Part shown: positions 1,457 through 9,946 of the stretch, in pieces
How positions within the stretch are numbered: the first letter of the stretch is position 1
Layout: every line of letters begins with the position of its first letter
Source of the DNA: Rubrivivax sp.
GTDB lineage: Bacteria; Pseudomonadota; Gammaproteobacteria; Burkholderiales; Burkholderiaceae_C
NCBI GenBank assembly: GCA_051861265.1
Contig: JBHYDA010000013.1
Location: forward strand, 54,208-118,207
Direction: 5' to 3'
DNA length: 64,000 nt
Notes under the pieces: generated by a model
The model's input: the letters and a program-made list of their open reading frames with translations, nothing else
Database searches by the model: none
Told to the model about the DNA's origin: nothing
Translations under genes and position numbers: made by a program

Positions 1457-1953
1457 GCCCGGAGCGCTGCGCCGAACTCATCGCCACGCTGGGGCTGCGG
1501 CCGCACCCCGAAGGCGGGCACTACGGCGAGGTGTTCCGCTCGGCCCTGCCGGTGCGGCCAGCTGACGGCCGCGTGGGACGCGTGGCGCTGACGACCATCG
1601 ATTTCCTGCTGCAGCCCGGCCAGTGTTCGGCCTGGCACCGGGTGGCCTCCGACGAGGTGTGGCACCTGCTGGAAGGCCCTGGCCTGCGGCTGTGGCTGGC
1701 GCCGCCCGATCTGTCGAACTTCACCCATGTCGACCTCGGGCCTGTAGCGGCCGCACAGCGCCCGCGCCACGTGGTGCCTGCCGGCTGGTGGCAGGCCGCC
1801 GAGCCGCTGGGCGGCGGTGCCTTCGTGGGCGCCACCGTGGGGCCGGGTTTCGAGTTCGCCGATTTCAGCTTCGGCCGCGAAGACACGGCCTTCTGCGCAG
1901 CCCTGGCCACAGCCGAGCATGCGCAGCCCGCCGCGCTGCGCCGCCTGCTCTAG
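1453..1953 (+). CDS. Cupin_5 (DUF985) family protein
   Basis: ATG overlaps the SDR stop (ATGA); HPEGGHY, WHRVASDEVWH and VGPGFEFADF are typical of DUF985. Confidence 0.85.
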   Translation: MSPERCAELIATLGLRPHPEGGHYGEVFRSALPVRPADGRVGRVALTTIDFLLQPGQCSAWHRVASDEVWHLLEGPGLRLWLAPPDLSNFTHVDLGPVAAAQRPRHVVPAGWWQAAEPLGGGAFVGATVGPGFEFADFSFGREDTAFCAALATAEHAQPAALRRLL

Positions 1954-3020
1954 GCCAGGCTCGAAGCCTCACCCAGCCCGATGCCCAGGGCGCGCGCCGC
2001 CTGCAGCAGCGGGTGGTCGAGCGCCACGCATCGCGTGCGCCCCGCCACCTCGTCCAGCGGCACGCTGACGCAGGCCCCGCCTTGCAAGGCGACCATGCGC
2101 CCGTGCTGGCCGGCCTTCACCAGTTGCGCGGCCTCGTAGCCGAAACGCGTGGCCAGCACGCGGTCGAAGGCCGTGGGCGTCCCGCCGCGCTGCGTGTGGC
2201 CCAGCACCGTGGTGCGCACCTCGCTCTGCAGCAGCGGCTGCAGTTGCTGCTGCAGCGCCTGCCCCACGCCGCCCAGGCGCAGCGGGTCGGGGCTGTGCGC
2301 CAGGGTTTCGCGCACCGTCAGGCCCTGCCCCTGCGCGTGGGCGCCCTCGGCGATGCAGATCAAGGTCGGCAGCCCGGCTTCTTCGCGCTGGCGGCAGCGC
2401 TCGGCCACCGCTTCCACGCTGAAGGCCAGCTCGGGCAGCAGGATGATGTCGGCACCGCCGGCCAGCCCGCCTTCGAGTGCGATCCAGCCTGCGTAGCGGC
2501 CCATGGTCTCGGCGATCATCACGCGGCCGTGGCTGCGCGCGGTGGTGGCCAGGCGGTCCAAGGCCTCGGCCACCACGGCCACGGCGCTGTCGAAGCCGAA
2601 AGTGCGCTCGGTGTGCGGCAGGTCGTTGTCGATGGTCTTGGGCACACCCACCACCGGCAGCCCGCGCTGGCCAAAACGGTGGGCGATGGCCATGGTGCCG
2701 TCGCCGCCCACGGCCACCAGCACGTCCAGGCCCAGCTCGCGGGCGTAAGCCAGCGCGGCATCGGCCTGGTCGTGGCCGTCCTGCACGCGGAAAGGGTCGC
2801 AGGTGTTGTGAGTGCCGAGGATGGTGCCGCCCTCGGCCAAGATGCCGGCCACATCGGCCGGCGCCAAGGGGCGTGAACGGCGAGCGATGAGCCCGTGGAA
2901 GCCGCGTTCGATGCCGGTGACGCGGGCGCCGCATTCATGGTGCAAGGCCAGCGTCACCGCGCGGATGACGGCGTTCAGGCCGGGGCAGTCGCCACCGCCG
3001 GTGAGGATGCCCACGTGCAT
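1950..3020 (-). CDS. pfkA: 6-phosphofructokinase (PfkA superfamily, group III-like)
   Basis: GGGDCPGLN, GGDGT, PKTIDND, MGRYAGW and GHTQRGG motifs. Confidence 0.9.
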   Translation of the reverse strand: MHVGILTGGGDCPGLNAVIRAVTLALHHECGARVTGIERGFHGLIARRSRPLAPADVAGILAEGGTILGTHNTCDPFRVQDGHDQADAALAYARELGLDVLVAVGGDGTMAIAHRFGQRGLPVVGVPKTIDNDLPHTERTFGFDSAVAVVAEALDRLATTARSHGRVMIAETMGRYAGWIALEGGLAGGADIILLPELAFSVEAVAERCRQREEAGLPTLICIAEGAHAQGQGLTVRETLAHSPDPLRLGGVGQALQQQLQPLLQSEVRTTVLGHTQRGGTPTAFDRVLATRFGYEAAQLVKAGQHGRMVALQGGACVSVPLDEVAGRTRCVALDHPLLQAARALGIGLGEASSLA

Positions 3021-3039
3021 GGCGACGCGCCCCGGCGCC

Positions 3040-4545
3040 TCAGCCCAGCCAGGCGGCGAGGTCGGCCTTCAGCTGGCGCAGATCGGCCTGGCGCGTGTAC
3101 ATCATGTGGCCGGCGTCGTAGTAGCGGTGCGTCACGCGCGCCAGCACGCTGGCCGGCACGTTCAATTGCGCCAGGCTCCAGTCACTCGCGCTGTAGGGCG
3201 TGCCCAGGTCGTAGCGGCCGCTGGCGGCCAGCACCTTCAGGTGCGGGTTGCGGCGCAGCGCACGGGCCAGGTCGGGGCTGGTGCTGCAGAAGCCCATGCT
3301 GCCGCGGCCGCCGCCTTCAGCCCCGCGCGCCCACTGCCAGCCGCCGTTGACCTCGTAGCTCAGCACGTTGTAGCGGTGCTCGAGGTCGATGCCCAGCGTG
3401 CCGCGGTAGTAGGCCAGCGCGGCCATCGTGTAGGGGCCGGCGATGGCCTCGATGCCGGGGTCGAACTCCATCTCGCTGACACGGCTGGCCGCCGCCGGCC
3501 CGGTGCCGCGCGCTTCCAGCCGGCCCACCACCTGGCCGCGCGCGCGCAGCGCCTCGGTGAAGTAGCAGCGGTCGCTGATGCGCAGGTTCTGCTCTTCCAC
3601 CAGCGTGCGTGGCAGGCCCGTGAGCTCGGCCACGCGGCGCGCCACGGCGCTGCGGCGCTTGTCGCTCAGGCGCGCGCCGGCCTGCAGGGCGCTGACGTAG
3701 TCGTCCTGCACGAAAGCCTCCGCCGCGGCGCGCGCGGCCTCGGGGCTGGCGGCTTGCGGGCCGCTGAGCAGGCCGTGGTACTGAGAAACGTTCGCGAAGG
3801 CGGGCAGGAACAGGCTGTACGGCAAATCGTTCGCCGGTGCGAAAGCGATGCTCTGCAGGTCCATTGCGCAAGACACGAGGATCACGCCGCTGAGCACCGC
3901 GCCCAGGCTCTGCATCTTGTCGGCCAGGCCGGCGCCGCGCGTGGTGCCGTAGCTTTCACCGGCGATGTAGAGCGGTGAGCCCCACCGCTGGTGGCGCGTG
4001 AGCCAACCGCGCATCACTTCGGCCAGGGCTTCGATGTCGCCGTCCACGGACAGGTGCTTCTTGCGCGCCTTCTCGCTGGCGCTCATCGACCAGCCGGTGT
4101 GCGGCGGGTCGATGAAGACGAGGTCGAAGTGCTCGAACCAGCTGTGCGGGTTGTCCTCCACCGCGTAAGGCGGCAGCGGCATGCTGCCGTCGTCGGGCAC
4201 CACCACGCGCTTGGGGCCCAAAGCGCCGAACTGCAGCCAGATGCTGGCCGAGCCCGGCCCGCCGTTGAAGGCAAAACACACAGGGCGCGTCTTCGCATCG
4301 GCACCTTGCAGCAGGTAGGCGGTGGTCATCACCGCGCCCTCGGGCTCGCCGGCTGCGCCCGCCAGGCCGCCCGGCAGCACCGGCATGAAGGCTGCGCTGA
4401 CGCGGTAGTCGAGCACACGCCCGCCGAGGGTGATCTGTGCCGTGCTCTCGGCCGCGGGGCGGGCCAGCAGCTTGTCGACCAGGGCCTTCAGCCGCTTGGC
4501 GTCGTCATCGGGGGTGGCGGGGGTGGCGGGGGTCGCGTCAGCCAT
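3040..4545 (-). CDS. Serine carboxypeptidase, peptidase S10 family
   Basis: FNGGPGSAS, GESYG nucleophile elbow, GRYDLGTP, AGHMMY. Confidence 0.9.
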   Translation of the reverse strand: MADATPATPATPDDDAKRLKALVDKLLARPAAESTAQITLGGRVLDYRVSAAFMPVLPGGLAGAAGEPEGAVMTTAYLLQGADAKTRPVCFAFNGGPGSASIWLQFGALGPKRVVVPDDGSMPLPPYAVEDNPHSWFEHFDLVFIDPPHTGWSMSASEKARKKHLSVDGDIEALAEVMRGWLTRHQRWGSPLYIAGESYGTTRGAGLADKMQSLGAVLSGVILVSCAMDLQSIAFAPANDLPYSLFLPAFANVSQYHGLLSGPQAASPEAARAAAEAFVQDDYVSALQAGARLSDKRRSAVARRVAELTGLPRTLVEEQNLRISDRCYFTEALRARGQVVGRLEARGTGPAAASRVSEMEFDPGIEAIAGPYTMAALAYYRGTLGIDLEHRYNVLSYEVNGGWQWARGAEGGGRGSMGFCSTSPDLARALRRNPHLKVLAASGRYDLGTPYSASDWSLAQLNVPASVLARVTHRYYDAGHMMYTRQADLRQLKADLAAWLG

Positions 4546-4601
4546 GGTCGGAGTGTCGGGTTGAGGGATGGATGTGGAAGAGGATAGGTCAGCCGTGCGC
4601 T

Positions 4602-5606
4602 TCAGGCGCTCGTGCCCGCCAGCAAGGCGCCGTAGCGCGCGATGTCGACGTTGCCGCCGCTGAGGATGACGCCCACGCGCTGTCCCCGTGCCGGCACCAC
4701 GCCATGCATCAGCGCGGCCGCGCCCAGCACGCCGGTGGGCTCCAGCACCAGCTTCAGCCGTTCGGCGAAGAATCGCATCGTCTCGACGATTTGCGCATCA
4801 CTTACCGTTTCGATGCGGCTCACCAGGCGCTGAATGACTGGGAAGGTCAGCGTGCCGCTGTGCTGCGTCTGCGCGCCGTCGGCGATGGTCTTGGGGGTGT
4901 CGATGTGCACGATGCGGCCCAGGGCCAGGCTCTGCTGGGTGTCGTTGCCAGCCTCGGGCTCGATGCCGACGACCTCGATGCCGGGGCTCAGGTGGTGCGC
5001 GGCCACCGCGCAGCCGCTGATCAGGCCGCCGCCACCCACGCAGACAAGCAGCAGATCCAGCGGCCCCGTGTCCTGCAGCAGCTCCCAGGCGGCGGTGCCC
5101 TGCCCGGCCATCACGTGCGGGTGGTCGTAGGGCGGAATCAGCGTCATGCCGCGCTCCTGCGCCAGGCGGCGGCCGATGGCCTCGCGGTCTTCGGTATAGC
5201 GGTCGTAGAGCACCACCTCGCTGCCGCGCTGGCCTTGCTGGTAGCCGCGTGTGGCCGTCAGCTTGGCCGCGGGCGAGTCTTGCGGCATCACGATGACCGA
5301 GGGCATGCCCAAGAGCCGCGCCGACAGCGCGATGGCCTGTGCGTGGTTGCCCGAGCTGAAGGCGATGACGCCGGCCTCGCGCTGCTGCGGCGTGAACTGC
5401 GCCAGCGCGTTGTAGGCCCCGCGGAACTTGAAGGCGCCCATGCGCTGCAGGTTCTCGGCCTTGAAGAAGACCTGCGCGCCGGTGGCTTCGTCCACGGTGC
5501 GCGAGGTGATGACGGGCGTGCGGTGGGCCACGCCCTGCAGCCGCGCGGCGGCGGCTTCGACGTCGGCGGCGCTGATGGCCAGCGGAGCAGCCATGTGGGT
5601 GTTCAT
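4602..5606 (-). CDS. PLP-dependent serine/threonine dehydratase, threo-3-hydroxy-L-aspartate ammonia-lyase-like
   Basis: KAENLQRMGAFKFRGA (PLP Lys), FSSGNHAQA, VGGGGLISG, SGGNVD. Confidence 0.85.
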   Translation of the reverse strand: MNTHMAAPLAISAADVEAAAARLQGVAHRTPVITSRTVDEATGAQVFFKAENLQRMGAFKFRGAYNALAQFTPQQREAGVIAFSSGNHAQAIALSARLLGMPSVIVMPQDSPAAKLTATRGYQQGQRGSEVVLYDRYTEDREAIGRRLAQERGMTLIPPYDHPHVMAGQGTAAWELLQDTGPLDLLLVCVGGGGLISGCAVAAHHLSPGIEVVGIEPEAGNDTQQSLALGRIVHIDTPKTIADGAQTQHSGTLTFPVIQRLVSRIETVSDAQIVETMRFFAERLKLVLEPTGVLGAAALMHGVVPARGQRVGVILSGGNVDIARYGALLAGTSA

Positions 5607-5613
5607 GGGCGGC

Positions 5614-6369
5614 TCAGACCGCGCCCGGGCCCTGGAAGCCCCCGCGGCGGTAGGTGATCACGAGGGTGTCGCGCCAGGCCGGCTGGCTGGCGTCGACCGG
5701 CTGGATGGGCGTGGTCTCGTGGATCACGCGCTCGTCGTCGAGCAGCAGCACGCTGAAGGGCTCGCGCAGCGTGAAGCGCACGCCCTGCGGGCCGCGGGCA
5801 TCGAAGACGCGGGTCTCGCCGCCCTTGACGTTGTGGCGGTCGACGATCAGCACGGCCACGAGGTCGACGCCGTCGCGGTGCGCCCCTTCGGGCGTGGGGC
5901 GGCCTATGCCGCCTTCGGTGTCGATGCGGAAGGGGTGCGCTTCGACGAACCACTCGCCGGGGGTGCCGACATCGGCGCGCAGGCCGTCGGCCACACCCGC
6001 CAGGCCTTGCAGCAGTTGCGCCCAGGCCGGGTCTTGCAACAACTCGGCCGGCAGGGGCTCGAACCAGCGCTCGTAGCCGCCGTGCAGCGCGTTGTATTCC
6101 ACCGGCTGCCAGTGGGCGCGGTGCGCAACGGCCTGCACCGCCGTCGCTGTGACGCGAAAACAACCGTGGCGGCGCTTGCGGTAGCGGCCGCCGTCGCGCA
6201 GGTGGGGGTCGGGCGGCAGCGCCGGCCACAGGGTTTGCCAGGCCAGCCAAGCGGGCAGCGGCGCGGCGCACAGGCGGGCCAGCGTGCCAGCGTCCAGCAC
6301 GGCCCAGCCGGCGGTGGAAAGCTGCGCCGGCACGTCGGCCAGTGCGGTGAGAGGGGGCGGTGGATGCAT
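5614..6369 (-). CDS. 2OG-Fe(II) dioxygenase, PF10014 (BsmA / free amino-acid hydroxylase)-like
   Basis: Start taken at the ATG at 6369; PEGAHRDG (HxD), distal HETTPI and RDTLVITY. Confidence 0.8.
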   Translation of the reverse strand: MHPPPPLTALADVPAQLSTAGWAVLDAGTLARLCAAPLPAWLAWQTLWPALPPDPHLRDGGRYRKRRHGCFRVTATAVQAVAHRAHWQPVEYNALHGGYERWFEPLPAELLQDPAWAQLLQGLAGVADGLRADVGTPGEWFVEAHPFRIDTEGGIGRPTPEGAHRDGVDLVAVLIVDRHNVKGGETRVFDARGPQGVRFTLREPFSVLLLDDERVIHETTPIQPVDASQPAWRDTLVITYRRGGFQGPGAV

Positions 6370-6441
6370 GCGGAACGGGGCGCCGGACGGAGGCAGGCAA
6401 GGCGTGAAGGGAAGGCCCGGGCTCGGGCCCGGCCGCGCGTT

Positions 6442-6459
6442 TTGGAGGCAGCTCTCCAA
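6442..6459. promoter_or_regulatory. Inverted repeat TTGGAG-N6-CTCCAA, candidate operator between divergent genes
   Basis: Perfect 6-bp arms read directly from the intergenic sequence. Confidence 0.35.
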
Positions 6460-6508
6460 TCGCATGTCAGCAAGGCGGGGGGCCAAGGCGTTAAGGTGCC
6501 TGCTGACC

Positions 6509-6736
6509 ATGCAACCCACCCTGCCCCCGACCACCGCGCCCAGCTGCCTGGTGGAGATCATCGAGCTCAAGTGGCTGCTGCGTGGCCATGGCATCGACCT
6601 TCACGTCGAACACCTGCAGAGCGACCCGGAGTATGCCCGCCGCACGCTGGACGCCGCGGCCGCGCTGCCGCATGCCCCACTGCGCGCCGCGGCCGCGCGG
6701 TTGCGTCTCTGCCTGCTGGGGCCCGAGCCCGGCTGA
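6509..6736 (+). CDS. Small hypothetical protein (75 aa)
   Basis: High-GC3 codon usage, protein-like composition (IIELKWLLRGHGIDLHVEHLQSDPEYARRTL), fills the intergenic gap. Confidence 0.7.
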   Translation: MQPTLPPTTAPSCLVEIIELKWLLRGHGIDLHVEHLQSDPEYARRTLDAAAALPHAPLRAAAARLRLCLLGPEPG

Positions 6737-6843
6737 CGGTCGCGGCCTGCCCTTGTGGGCAGGCGCGGGTTTGCCGCTGCTGTGGCCAAGCCGGCGCGGG
6801 GCGTAGGATGCACCGGGCGATCCGCTTCGCCTGGAGGTCTGCC

Positions 6844-8052
6844 ATGCGCCCTGCCCCGAACCGCAGCCTGCCTCGCCCTGCCTCGGCCCTTTGGTGGCGC
6901 CGGCTTGCCCTGCCGCTGGTCTTGGCCGCGGCAGGCTTGGCGGGATGTGCCGTGGCACCGCCCGCCCCGGCGCCAGTGGCCGCGTTGTTGCAGGACCAGC
7001 TGTACCCCAGCGCGCCGGCTGCCGTGGATGTCTCGGGCGTGTTCGCGCTCAGTCCGGCGATGCGGCACTACGTCGACACCGAACTCGCTGGCTTGGCCCA
7101 TGCCCCCGACCGCCGCGAGCGGCTGCTGGCTGCGCTGCGCGACCAGGGCCGGCTGAACCTCGACTACGACGACGGCATCACCCGCAACGCGGCCGAAGCC
7201 TTCGACAAGCGGGCCGGGCATTGCCTCTCTCTGGTGGTGATGACGGCGGCCTTCGCCCGGCACCTGGGCCTGCCGGTGCGCTACCAGGAGGTGCACGTAC
7301 AGCCTAACTACAGCCGCGCCAACAGCCTGACCTTCGCCAGCGGCCACGTGAACATCGTGCTGATGGCCTTGCCGCACGACAGCCAGGGCCAGCGCACAGC
7401 CAGCGAAGACCTGACGGTCGACTTCGTGACGCCCGACGAACTGCGCAGCGCCCGGCTCGAGCCCATCACCGAGGGCCGCGTGCTGGCGATGTTCATGAAC
7501 AACCGTGCCGCCGAGCACCTGGCCGCAGGGCAGGCCCCTGAGGCCTACGCCTGGGCACGCGCCGCTGTGCTGCAGGACCCGGCCTACCTCGGGGCCGTCA
7601 ACACCCTGGGCGTGATCTACCTGCGCAGCGGTCACCACGCTGCGGCCGAGCAGGCGCTGCACAGCGTGCTGGCCCGCGCGCCCGACGATGTGCCGGCCGT
7701 CTCGAACCTCATCGCCACGCTCACGGCCGCCGGCCGCCAGGCCGAGGCCGCGCCCTACCGCCGGCGCCTGGCGATGCTGCAACGCCACCCGCCCTTCCAC
7801 TTTCTCGATCTCGGCGTTGCGGCGCTGCAGCGGGGCGATCTGCGCCAGGCGCGTTCGCACTTCGAGCGTGAACTGCGGCGCCAGCCGTTCCAGCACGAGG
7901 CGCACTACTGGGGCGGCGTGGCGGATGCGCTGCTGGGCGACCCTGCCTCGGCCGAAGCGCACCTGCGCAGCGCCATCGAGCACAGCGGCAACCCGGCGCT
8001 GGGCGCTCGCTACAGCGCGAAGCTGGCGGCTCTGAAAGGGCGCGCGCTCTAG
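6844..8052 (+). CDS. Lipoprotein with a transglutaminase-like domain and C-terminal TPR repeats
   Basis: GGAGG SD before ATG 6844 (alternative ATG at 6808); lipobox LAGC; GHCLS / GHVN / VDF putative Cys-His-Asp triad; TPR-like helices (NTLGVIYLRSGHHAAAEQAL). Confidence 0.75.
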   Translation: MRPAPNRSLPRPASALWWRRLALPLVLAAAGLAGCAVAPPAPAPVAALLQDQLYPSAPAAVDVSGVFALSPAMRHYVDTELAGLAHAPDRRERLLAALRDQGRLNLDYDDGITRNAAEAFDKRAGHCLSLVVMTAAFARHLGLPVRYQEVHVQPNYSRANSLTFASGHVNIVLMALPHDSQGQRTASEDLTVDFVTPDELRSARLEPITEGRVLAMFMNNRAAEHLAAGQAPEAYAWARAAVLQDPAYLGAVNTLGVIYLRSGHHAAAEQALHSVLARAPDDVPAVSNLIATLTAAGRQAEAAPYRRRLAMLQRHPPFHFLDLGVAALQRGDLRQARSHFERELRRQPFQHEAHYWGGVADALLGDPASAEAHLRSAIEHSGNPALGARYSAKLAALKGRAL

Positions 8053-8142
8053 CCAGCCCGGGGCTGCAAAGCGGCAAGCCGGTGTGCGGTCTTCAAGGCG
8101 CGGCCAGGGCGCCGTCAGGCGCAGCGGTTACGCTGCCGCCCC

Positions 8143-8859
8143 ATGACGACCCGAGACAAGAAGCCGAACCCCCTGCTGGAGATCGGCATCACCGTGCTGC
8201 TGCCGGCCTTCATCTTGATGAAGCTGAGCAGCCCCGAGCGCCTGGGCACCCTGGGTGCGCTGCTGCTGGCCCTGGCCTTCCCGGTGGGATGGGGCGTGTG
8301 GGATGGCCTGCGCCGCCGCAAACTCAACTGGTTCAGCGTGCTGGGCGTGGTGAGCACGCTGCTCACGGGCGGCATCGGCCTGCTGAAGCTGGATGCGCAA
8401 TGGCTCGCCGTGAAAGAGGCGCTGGTGCCCGGGTTGATCGGCGTGGCGGTGCTGGCCTCGAACTTCACGAAGTCGCCGTTGATCCGCGTGCTGGTCTTCA
8501 ACGCCGATCTTTTCGACCTGCCCAAGGTCAACGCAGCCTTGGCCGCCCGCGGCAACATCGTGCCGTTCGAGCTGCGCCTGCGCACCGGCACCTTCCTGCT
8601 GGCCGGCACCTTCTTCTTCTCGGCGCTGGCCAACTACGTGCTGGCGCGGCTGGTGGTGAGCGCGCCCGCCGGCACCGAAGCCTTCAACGAGCAATTGGGC
8701 AAGCTCACGCTCTTGAGCTACCCCGTCATCGCCATCCCGAGCATGCTGATGATGATGGGCCTGATGTTCTGGCTGGCCCGCGGCGCCAAAGCGCTGACGG
8801 GGCTGGACCTGGGCGACATGCTGCAAGGCGGCGCCCCGGCCGGCAAACCGTCGGCCTGA
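8143..8859 (+). CDS. VC0807-family inner membrane protein
   Basis: Multiple hydrophobic helices; NPLLEIGITVLLPAFILMKLS and AVKEALVPGLIG. Confidence 0.7.
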   Translation: MTTRDKKPNPLLEIGITVLLPAFILMKLSSPERLGTLGALLLALAFPVGWGVWDGLRRRKLNWFSVLGVVSTLLTGGIGLLKLDAQWLAVKEALVPGLIGVAVLASNFTKSPLIRVLVFNADLFDLPKVNAALAARGNIVPFELRLRTGTFLLAGTFFFSALANYVLARLVVSAPAGTEAFNEQLGKLTLLSYPVIAIPSMLMMMGLMFWLARGAKALTGLDLGDMLQGGAPAGKPSA

Positions 8860-8881
8860 GTTCGCGCAGCGCTCTCGGCCT

Positions 8882-9946
8882 TCAGACGATGATGGGTTCC
8901 GGCTCCAGCCGGATGCCGAAGCGCCCGTAGACGCTTTCCTGGATGGCGCGCGCCAGCGTCACCACCTCGGCGCCGCTGGCGCCGCCGCGGTTGACCAGCA
9001 CCAGGGCCTGCTTCTCGTAGACGCCGGCGCGGCCCACGGTCTTGCCCTTCCAGCCGCAGGCGTCGATCAGCCAGCCTGCGGCCAGCTTCACCGTGCCGTC
9101 GGGCATGGGGTAGTGCACGATCTCGGGATCGCGGCCGATGATGTCGCGGCACTGCTCTTCGGTGACCACGGGGTTCTTGAAGAAGCTGCCGGCGTTGCCG
9201 ATGACGGCCGGGTCGGGCAGCTTGGCGCGGCGGATGGCGCAGATCCAGTCGAAGATGGTCTGTGCATCGGGCGCGGAGTTGCCGGTCTCGGCCATCCTGC
9301 GTTCGAGGTCCAGGTAGCCCAGCACCGGCTGCCAGGGCCTGGGCAGGCGGAAGCGCACGCGCGTGATCACGCTCTTGCCCGCCAGGCCGCCGAAGCCGCT
9401 CTGCTTGAACACGCTGTCGCGGTAGCCGAAGCGGCAGTCCGCCGGACCCAGCGTGACGCTGCGGCCGGTGATCAGGTCGATGGCGTCCAGGCTGTGGAAG
9501 CGGTCCTTGAGCTCCACGCCGTAGGCACCGATGTTCTGCACCGGGGCAGCGCCCGTGCTGCCCGGGATCAGCGCCAGGTTCTCCAGCCCCGGCCAGCCCT
9601 GTTGCAGCGTCCAGGCCACCACCGCGTGCCAGCTCTCGCCGGCGCCGGCCTCCACCACCCAGGCCTCGGGCGTCTCGTCCACCAGGCGCAGGCCGGGGAT
9701 CTCGACCTTCAGCACCACCTGCTCCAGATCGTGCGTCAGCACCACGTTGCTGCCGCCGCCCAGCACGAACTTCGGTGCCAGCCCGTACTCGGGGTGGTCG
9801 ACGACGCGGCGCACGTCGGCCTCGGTCTTCAGGCGCACCAACGTGCGGGCCACGGCGGGCAGGCCGAAGGTGTTGTGTTCGCGCAGGCTGGCACGCGTTT
9901 GCACGTCCAGCAAGGGTTGCGCCGCGGGCGCCGGAGGGAGGGTCAT
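8882..9946 (-). CDS. murB: UDP-N-acetylenolpyruvoylglucosamine reductase
   Basis: GGGSNV, GLENLALIPG, AAPVQNIGAYG, GNAGSFFKNP, LEPEP; start taken at ATG 9946. Confidence 0.95.
   Translation of the reverse strand: MTLPPAPAAQPLLDVQTRASLREHNTFGLPAVARTLVRLKTEADVRRVVDHPEYGLAPKFVLGGGSNVVLTHDLEQVVLKVEIPGLRLVDETPEAWVVEAGAGESWHAVVAWTLQQGWPGLENLALIPGSTGAAPVQNIGAYGVELKDRFHSLDAIDLITGRSVTLGPADCRFGYRDSVFKQSGFGGLAGKSVITRVRFRLPRPWQPVLGYLDLERRMAETGNSAPDAQTIFDWICAIRRAKLPDPAVIGNAGSFFKNPVVTEEQCRDIIGRDPEIVHYPMPDGTVKLAAGWLIDACGWKGKTVGRAGVYEKQALVLVNRGGASGAEVVTLARAIQESVYGRFGIRLEPEPIIV

Follow-up and report, generated by a model that had tools for sequence, protein, structure and literature searches.

When the gene of a putative amino acid dioxygenase and that of a lyase able, in principle, to act on a hydroxylated amino acid lie a few nucleotides apart, does their proximity reflect a metabolic pathway or the local organization of one lineage? 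This question is raised by a locus of Rubrivivax sp. (contig JBHYDA010000013.1), included in a stretch of 64,000 nucleotides that was analyzed as a whole and is referred to as the window. Here a gene for a PF10014 Fe(II)/2-oxoglutarate (2OG) dioxygenase is followed by one for a fold-type II pyridoxal 5'-phosphate (PLP) enzyme, referred to as the lyase, and by one for an S10-like hydrolase. An initial annotation of this DNA interpreted the three genes as a route in which the peptidase frees an amino acid, the dioxygenase hydroxylates it at C3, and the lyase removes water and ammonia, so that aspartate would be converted into 3-hydroxyaspartate and then into oxaloacetate. The present data describe a pair joined locally in one operon, and not a pathway conserved across lineages, and we suggest, giving this explanation about an even chance of being correct, that the genes form a clade-specific operon of independently functioning enzymes, restricted to a Rubrivivax/Sphaerotilaceae-type lineage.

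Distribution of the Genes in the Family and in the Phylum

The three genes were sought in 150 genera of the family, each represented by one genome (G041-G189) with a completeness of at least 90%. Orthologs of the dioxygenase were found in 125 genera, almost always in one copy and with 53-69% identity, those of the lyase (at least 53% identity) in 67, and those of the S10 gene (at least 57% identity) in 10. The occurrence of the dioxygenase and that of the lyase are not associated: the counts of genera with both genes, the dioxygenase only, the lyase only, and neither are 58/67/9/16 (odds ratio 1.54, p = 0.38), a statistic that is descriptive, since related genomes are not independent. Hence, 67 of the 125 genera harboring the dioxygenase have no lyase ortholog, and the lyase is present in 9 of the 25 genera devoid of the dioxygenase. 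The two genes are adjacent in five (G000, G106, G115, G159, and G166) of the 59 genomes possessing both, that is, 58 genera plus the window. In the Comamonadaceae-type genera the unlinked lyase gene is embedded among housekeeping genes (purD, yebC, upp, and a herA-like gene).

In a phylum-wide sample, PF10014 was found in 52 of 401 genomes, and a threonine-dehydratase-like (PALP) gene lies within 4 kb of the PF10014 gene in one of 38 further loci. The contigs bearing the distant PF10014 representatives P0132, P0133, and P0142 measure only 1-8 kb, and the neighboring genes on them are not informative.

Conservation of the Adjacency Within One Clade

Of the 24 other genomes of the genus, 21 possess the dioxygenase gene. 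In each of the 19 loci fetched from them, this gene is directly followed by the lyase gene and usually, after that, by the S10 gene; in two genomes (G014 and G022) the dioxygenase-lyase pair exists and no S10 gene occurs anywhere in the genome. A scan of 185,579 species genomes, one per species, was used to collect the best 80 orthologous dioxygenase loci (55-94% identity). The lyase gene adjoins that of the dioxygenase in 14 of these best 80; in two more (L042 and L043) the dioxygenase is followed by S10 with no lyase, and in another (L040) S10 lies about 6 kb downstream, also with no lyase. The remaining loci of this set have neither gene within 7 kb, and they include representatives of Acidovorax, Variovorax, Hydrogenophaga, Limnohabitans, Polaromonas, Polynucleobacter, Lysobacter, and Myxococcota.

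In a dioxygenase tree of 108 loci, all the lyase- or S10-adjacent states fall into a single Sphaerotilaceae-type clade (47 rows), except for G115, whose dioxygenase was placed by a quick tree among those of Comamonadaceae. An independent, and thus repeated, origin of the adjacency in G115 was initially claimed and then dropped, as the approximately unbiased (AU) test did not reject the location of G115 within the adjacency clade (p = 0.68), the constrained tree having the higher likelihood. A single origin followed by later losses is therefore sufficient to explain the extant distribution.

Also within the genus the genes may be found apart. No dioxygenase gene exists anywhere in the genomes of two congeners, G001 (100% complete) and G002 (97% complete), where the lyase gene is located directly behind a conserved 75-aa open reading frame (ORF), which in the window is divergent from the operon; in G002 a lipoprotein gene with tetratricopeptide repeats (TPR) is retained as well, and the lyase locus of both genomes carries no dioxygenase remnant. 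Judging from the gene order, this is a clean deletion of the dioxygenase gene, the lyase having been retained behind what appears to be the same promoter region. In G001 the lyase is followed by S10, and in G002 S10 is followed by a phosphofructokinase (PFK) gene elsewhere in the genome. In G051 lyase, S10, and PFK form one block and the dioxygenase lies 317 kb away; in G164, as in L042 and L043, the dioxygenase is followed by S10 and the lyase is missing. All these arrangements reveal that each gene persists without the others. The initial annotation had stated that its proposal would fall if the adjacency were not conserved; the adjacency does hold within one clade, and it does not hold in the rest of the family, where few of the genomes having both genes keep them together and the two do not co-occur, or in the two congeners that kept the lyase alone.

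The Dioxygenase Belongs to the 3PL0 Group

The family assignment of the dioxygenase is sound, its match to PF10014 reaching 222.5 bits (cut-off 23.1) and covering profile positions 2-192 of 192. The start of the gene at position 6369 was confirmed by a database protein (P0004) of exactly 251 aa and 100% identity. A longer ORF extending to position 6594 was also considered as the dioxygenase gene and ruled out on the basis of this identical 251-aa protein and of the fit of the Pfam domain. The residues of the iron/2OG site (H164-R-D166, H217, and R233) are invariant in an alignment of 35 homologs (alignment A1).

The nearest solved relative is PDB 3PL0 (E = 4.6e-89), the structure of Mpe_A2762 of Methylibium petroleiphilum PM1 determined by the Joint Center for Structural Genomics (JCSG). 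The AlphaFold2 (AF2) model of the window dioxygenase (predicted local distance difference test score, pLDDT, 94.6) superimposes onto 3PL0 with a Z score of 34.2 and 57% identity over 242 aligned residues, and exhibits a cupin/double-stranded beta-helix (DSBH) fold like those of 3PL0 and IDO. Both the sequence and the model thus indicate that the dioxygenase is an ortholog of Mpe_A2762; the latter has the same HxD...H...R site, with no difference in kind, and is likewise a PF10014 member without an assigned substrate. From its distribution, the 3PL0 orthologous group is, as far as sequence comparison can tell, a near-core, single-copy, vertically inherited orphan of the family. Dioxygenases of this type also occur in Polynucleobacter, Lysobacter, and Myxococcota, with 55-60% identity.

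The same model superimposes onto 8W8H, HrmJ, IDO, BelL, and TqaL with Z scores of 21-27 (24.3 for IDO). The first of these is listed merely as a 2-ketoglutarate-dependent dioxygenase, and the other four, which have the fold and the iron/2OG site in common with the window enzyme (Z scores of 21-26), use free L-amino acids as substrates. The statement of the initial annotation that PF10014 relatives act on such substrates is thus in agreement with the data on IDO, HrmJ, BelL, and TqaL, as well as on GlbB, a PF10014 member that is a lysine 4-hydroxylase. The sites attacked are C4 of isoleucine (IDO), C4 of lysine (GlbB), and C5 of leucine (LdoA), with hydrogen abstraction at C4 of 6-nitronorleucine in HrmJ and BelL and at C3 of valine in TqaL; hence, C4 or C5 is the position attacked by most of the characterized enzymes with the PF10014 fold, TqaL being the only one to attack C3. 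These enzymes share 16-28% identity with the window dioxygenase and are located in natural-product or specialized clusters, whereas the gene of the window enzyme is near-core, and present in a single copy, throughout a bacterial family. By analogy with these relatives, the enzyme most likely oxidizes a free L-amino acid. The choice of aspartate as the substrate and of C3 as the site of attack, made in the initial annotation, found nothing in its favor; no sequence features for or against aspartate as a substrate of the dioxygenase were found.

At other loci the dioxygenase gene has other neighbors. A gene for a universal stress protein (Usp) lies directly downstream of it in 20 loci, and a divergent hemerythrin gene is located beside it in 11. 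In Variovorax (L059, L066, L067, L077, L094, L037, and L041) the order on one strand is EgtB-like, EgtD-like (PF10017), DUF427, dioxygenase, and Usp, an arrangement that puts ergothioneine-type genes beside the same dioxygenase.

The Lyase and the S10-like Protein

The lyase matches PF00291 with 249.6 bits, and it exceeds the cut-off (452) of the equivalog model of threo-3-hydroxy-L-aspartate ammonia-lyase, NF005454, with a score of 539.6 bits. Thus, it falls within the model of the EC 4.3.1.16 enzyme, its substrate preference being putative. The best solved relative is the Schizosaccharomyces pombe serine racemase 1V71 (E = 2.3e-120), and the motifs AFKFRGA (with the PLP-lysine) and SSGNH, found in the translation, are a further resemblance to the EC 4.3.1.16 enzyme and to the fungal and mammalian serine racemases. 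We suggest that the best explanation, within a reading to which, taken as a whole, we give an even chance, is a general serine-racemase-type ammonia-lyase acting on beta-hydroxy amino acids or serine, with a wider distribution of its own that is not correlated with that of the dioxygenase. Participation in the beta-hydroxyaspartate cycle was also considered. BhcB, the beta-hydroxyaspartate dehydratase of that cycle, has the same PLP fold and a similar chemistry; this assignment was ruled out by the score against the BhcB model NF045641 (299.6 bits, below the cut-off of 550), and the window operon contains no further genes of the cycle.

The S10-like protein matches PF00450 (56.8 bits, cut-off 21.9) only over residues 83-202, corresponding to profile positions 36-148 of 420. 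Its NGGPG oxyanion motif and GESYG nucleophile motif align to those of carboxypeptidase Y (1WPX; E = 2.4e-5) over about 115 residues only, GESYG being paired with GESYA of the latter. Near its C-terminus the translated sequence contains a DAGHMM motif, which aligned to no solved S10 structure, and no N-terminal signal peptide is visible. With respect to carboxypeptidase Y, the window protein is bacterial, 501 aa long, and devoid of a signal peptide; it is presumably cytoplasmic, and a putative peptidase. With these qualifications, the assignments of the three proteins to PF10014, to the threo-3-hydroxyaspartate ammonia-lyase type, and to S10, proposed at first sight, are all in agreement with profile scores above the cut-offs. 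The PFK gene lies directly 3' of S10 in 8 of the 22 loci with a full S10 gene, and its presence in the same unit implies that the operon mixes functions.

Weighing the Explanations for the Pair

In the clade-specific operon that we propose, the dioxygenase would be a vertically inherited near-core enzyme that oxidizes, if the analogy with its relatives holds, a free L-amino acid; the lyase would be a general serine-racemase-type enzyme working independently of it, and the S10-like hydrolase and PFK would be further passengers of the operon. The reading of the operon as a pathway is weakly supported. Nevertheless, several observations weigh against the independence of the two enzymes. The chemistry would fit if the dioxygenase yielded a beta-hydroxy amino acid, and TqaL shows that the fold can attack C3. 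In the window the two genes are only 7 nt apart, and the pair is kept across a clade in which the identity of the dioxygenase falls to about 60%; moreover, in G166 the lyase gene precedes that of the dioxygenase and the pair is still contiguous (spacer shorter than 50 nt), which suggests selection for co-expression. In Roseateles/Paucibacter (L050, L082 at 7877-8986, and L099) the orthologous dioxygenase is followed, 163-244 nt downstream and on the same strand, by the gene of a 369-aa ELFV (Glu/Leu/Phe/Val-type) amino acid dehydrogenase. Lastly, a distant locus (L158:1717-7759, in G399) embeds genes for gamma-glutamyltranspeptidase (GGT), a PF10014 protein (36% identity), IclR, a class-V aminotransferase, and a PALP protein, in this order, and might possibly represent an amino acid catabolic island. 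These two contexts, along with a LivJ-type binding protein encoded downstream of the dioxygenase in two loci, fit an amino acid theme and identify no substrate.

The same observations might be accounted for by a facultative pair, in which the dioxygenase would beta-hydroxylate a free L-amino acid and the co-transcribed lyase would eliminate water and ammonia to give a 2-oxo acid, in the salvage or detoxification of a hydroxy amino acid, the product being taken elsewhere by an unlinked lyase or by another enzyme. We regard this as a real possibility, though an unlikely one. The tight adjacency within the clade and its survival under reversal in G166 argue for it, as do the free L-amino acids used by the characterized fold relatives, the score of the lyase above the NF005454 cut-off, the ELFV dehydrogenase of the three Roseateles/Paucibacter loci, and the company of aminotransferase and PALP genes at L158; yet a functional coupling is hard to reconcile with the lack of any phyletic association, with the 67 genera that do without a lyase ortholog, with G001 and G002, which lost the dioxygenase cleanly and retained the lyase, with the single PALP-bearing locus among the 38 of the phylum sample, and with the preference of known family members for C4 or C5, and the AU test gives it no independent origin of the adjacency in G115. 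All these objections apply also to the full aspartate route, in which S10 would free aspartate, the dioxygenase would make L-threo-3-hydroxyaspartate, and the lyase would convert it into oxaloacetate and ammonia. This dedicated route from peptide to oxaloacetate is chemically plausible, and it is consistent with the lyase score and with the fact that, of the 11 genomes bearing an S10 ortholog, 7 have it beside one or both of the other two genes; it is unlikely, however, as the comparative data do not indicate it, and in the complete form just described we consider it extremely doubtful. Indeed, the Fe/2OG oxygenases of free amino acids covered by the review PMC11611013 include no hydroxylase of free aspartate, the deamination of aspartate would cost 2-oxoglutarate and O2 with, presumably, no evident gain over transamination, S10 orthologs occur in only 10 of the 150 genera, and G014 and G022 maintain the pair in genomes devoid of S10. 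That the peptidase feeds the pathway is pure conjecture.

A different partner for the dioxygenase is suggested by a MesD-like core methionine synthase (PF01717, about 340 aa), whose gene lies directly upstream of it in nine fetched loci, Rubrivivax included (such upstream genes are found in L049:350-1372, L120:7476-8567, L061, L009, L010, L015, and L020, and in G110, G147, and G164), and, in 16 of the 51 genera that have a MesD-like gene, at most 10 kb upstream with the same orientation, a proximity more frequent than the adjacency with the lyase. Some Rubrivivax genomes exhibit the order MesD-like, dioxygenase, lyase. As MesD requires an O2-dependent partner (PMC7857596), the dioxygenase might be its O2-dependent helper, in the metabolism of sulfur amino acids or of methyl groups, with no part for the lyase. 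This appears very doubtful, since a MesD-like gene is missing from the genome of the window and the two genes show no co-occurrence, 81 of the 125 dioxygenase genera lacking a MesD-like gene and 7 of the 25 dioxygenase-less genera having one. As for the broader idea that the Rubrivivax/Sphaerotilaceae operon encodes an undescribed route, with PF10014 beta-hydroxylation of a free amino acid (possibly released by S10) followed by a serine-racemase-type lyase that would release a 2-oxo acid and ammonia from the hydroxylated product, the pairing was indeed not found as a described pathway in the literature searched, as the initial annotation had supposed; we consider such a route quite improbable. 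If it were true, it would provide the first substrate for the 3PL0 group and the first PF10014 beta-hydroxylase of free amino acids. More generally, if the two enzymes were really linked, a dioxygenase group that has a solved structure and no function, and that is nearly universal in Comamonadaceae/Sphaerotilaceae-type bacteria, would receive its substrate, and amino acid metabolism would gain a deamination route driven by O2 and 2-oxoglutarate. The more notable by-product of this work is the 3PL0-group dioxygenase itself, a single-copy orphan, near-universal in the family, that deserves a substrate screen irrespective of the pairing.

Organization of the Locus and Flanking Genes

The features of the locus are listed in Table 1. 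The initial annotation had located the three genes correctly and in the same orientation, which is that of the minus strand, and had not mentioned PFK, the fourth gene of the series; the common direction of the four genes is in agreement with ORF calls and codon-position G+C (the window has 72% G+C). The TGA stop codon of the dioxygenase is followed by a spacer of 7 nt (gccgccc), the length that had been given for it, and then by the ATG of the lyase; 56 nt separate the stop of the lyase from the start of the S10-like gene, and 19 nt separate the latter from PFK, on the same strand. This spacing suggests that the four genes may be co-transcribed, PFK probably being the last gene of the transcription unit. 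A promoter/terminator scan of positions 1800-7000 revealed no terminator-like site and nothing else, a result that is uninformative at 72% G+C.

Table 1. Features of the dioxygenase-lyase locus (positions of the window).
Feature	Position	Strand	Length and basis
PF10014 Fe(II)/2-oxoglutarate dioxygenase	5614-6369	minus	251 aa; Pfam, database protein, AF2 model compared with 3PL0
Fold-type II PLP enzyme, serine racemase / L-threo-3-hydroxyaspartate ammonia-lyase family	4602-5606	minus	334 aa; NF005454
S10-like serine peptidase / alpha-beta hydrolase	3040-4545	minus	501 aa; partial match to PF00450
Phosphofructokinase (PFK)	1950-3020	minus	PF00365, 316 bits
Divergent promoter region, flanked by the dioxygenase gene on one side and by the 75-aa ORF / TPR lipoprotein genes on the other	6370-6508		intergenic sequence
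75-aa ORF divergent from the operon	6509-6736	plus	conservation in related loci
Lipoprotein with LAGC lipobox and C-terminal TPR repeats	6844-8052	plus	translation and weak domain match
587-aa ORF with C-terminal Cupin_5 (DUF985)	190-1953	plus	domain match

The best named relatives are Rubrivivax rivuli and Rubrivivax metagenome-assembled genomes. The 587-aa ORF converges on the PFK gene, the stop regions of the two overlapping by 4 nt; Cupin_5 is its sole domain match, and its N-terminal 420 residues are without assignment. On the other side of the operon, the 75-aa ORF has no Pfam or NCBIfam match, and at least 21 related loci conserve it, the identity being 50-87%. The lipoprotein shows a weak match to a transglutaminase core (E = 2e-4, under the cut-off), and many loci of Rubrivivax conserve its gene on the upstream side of the operon.

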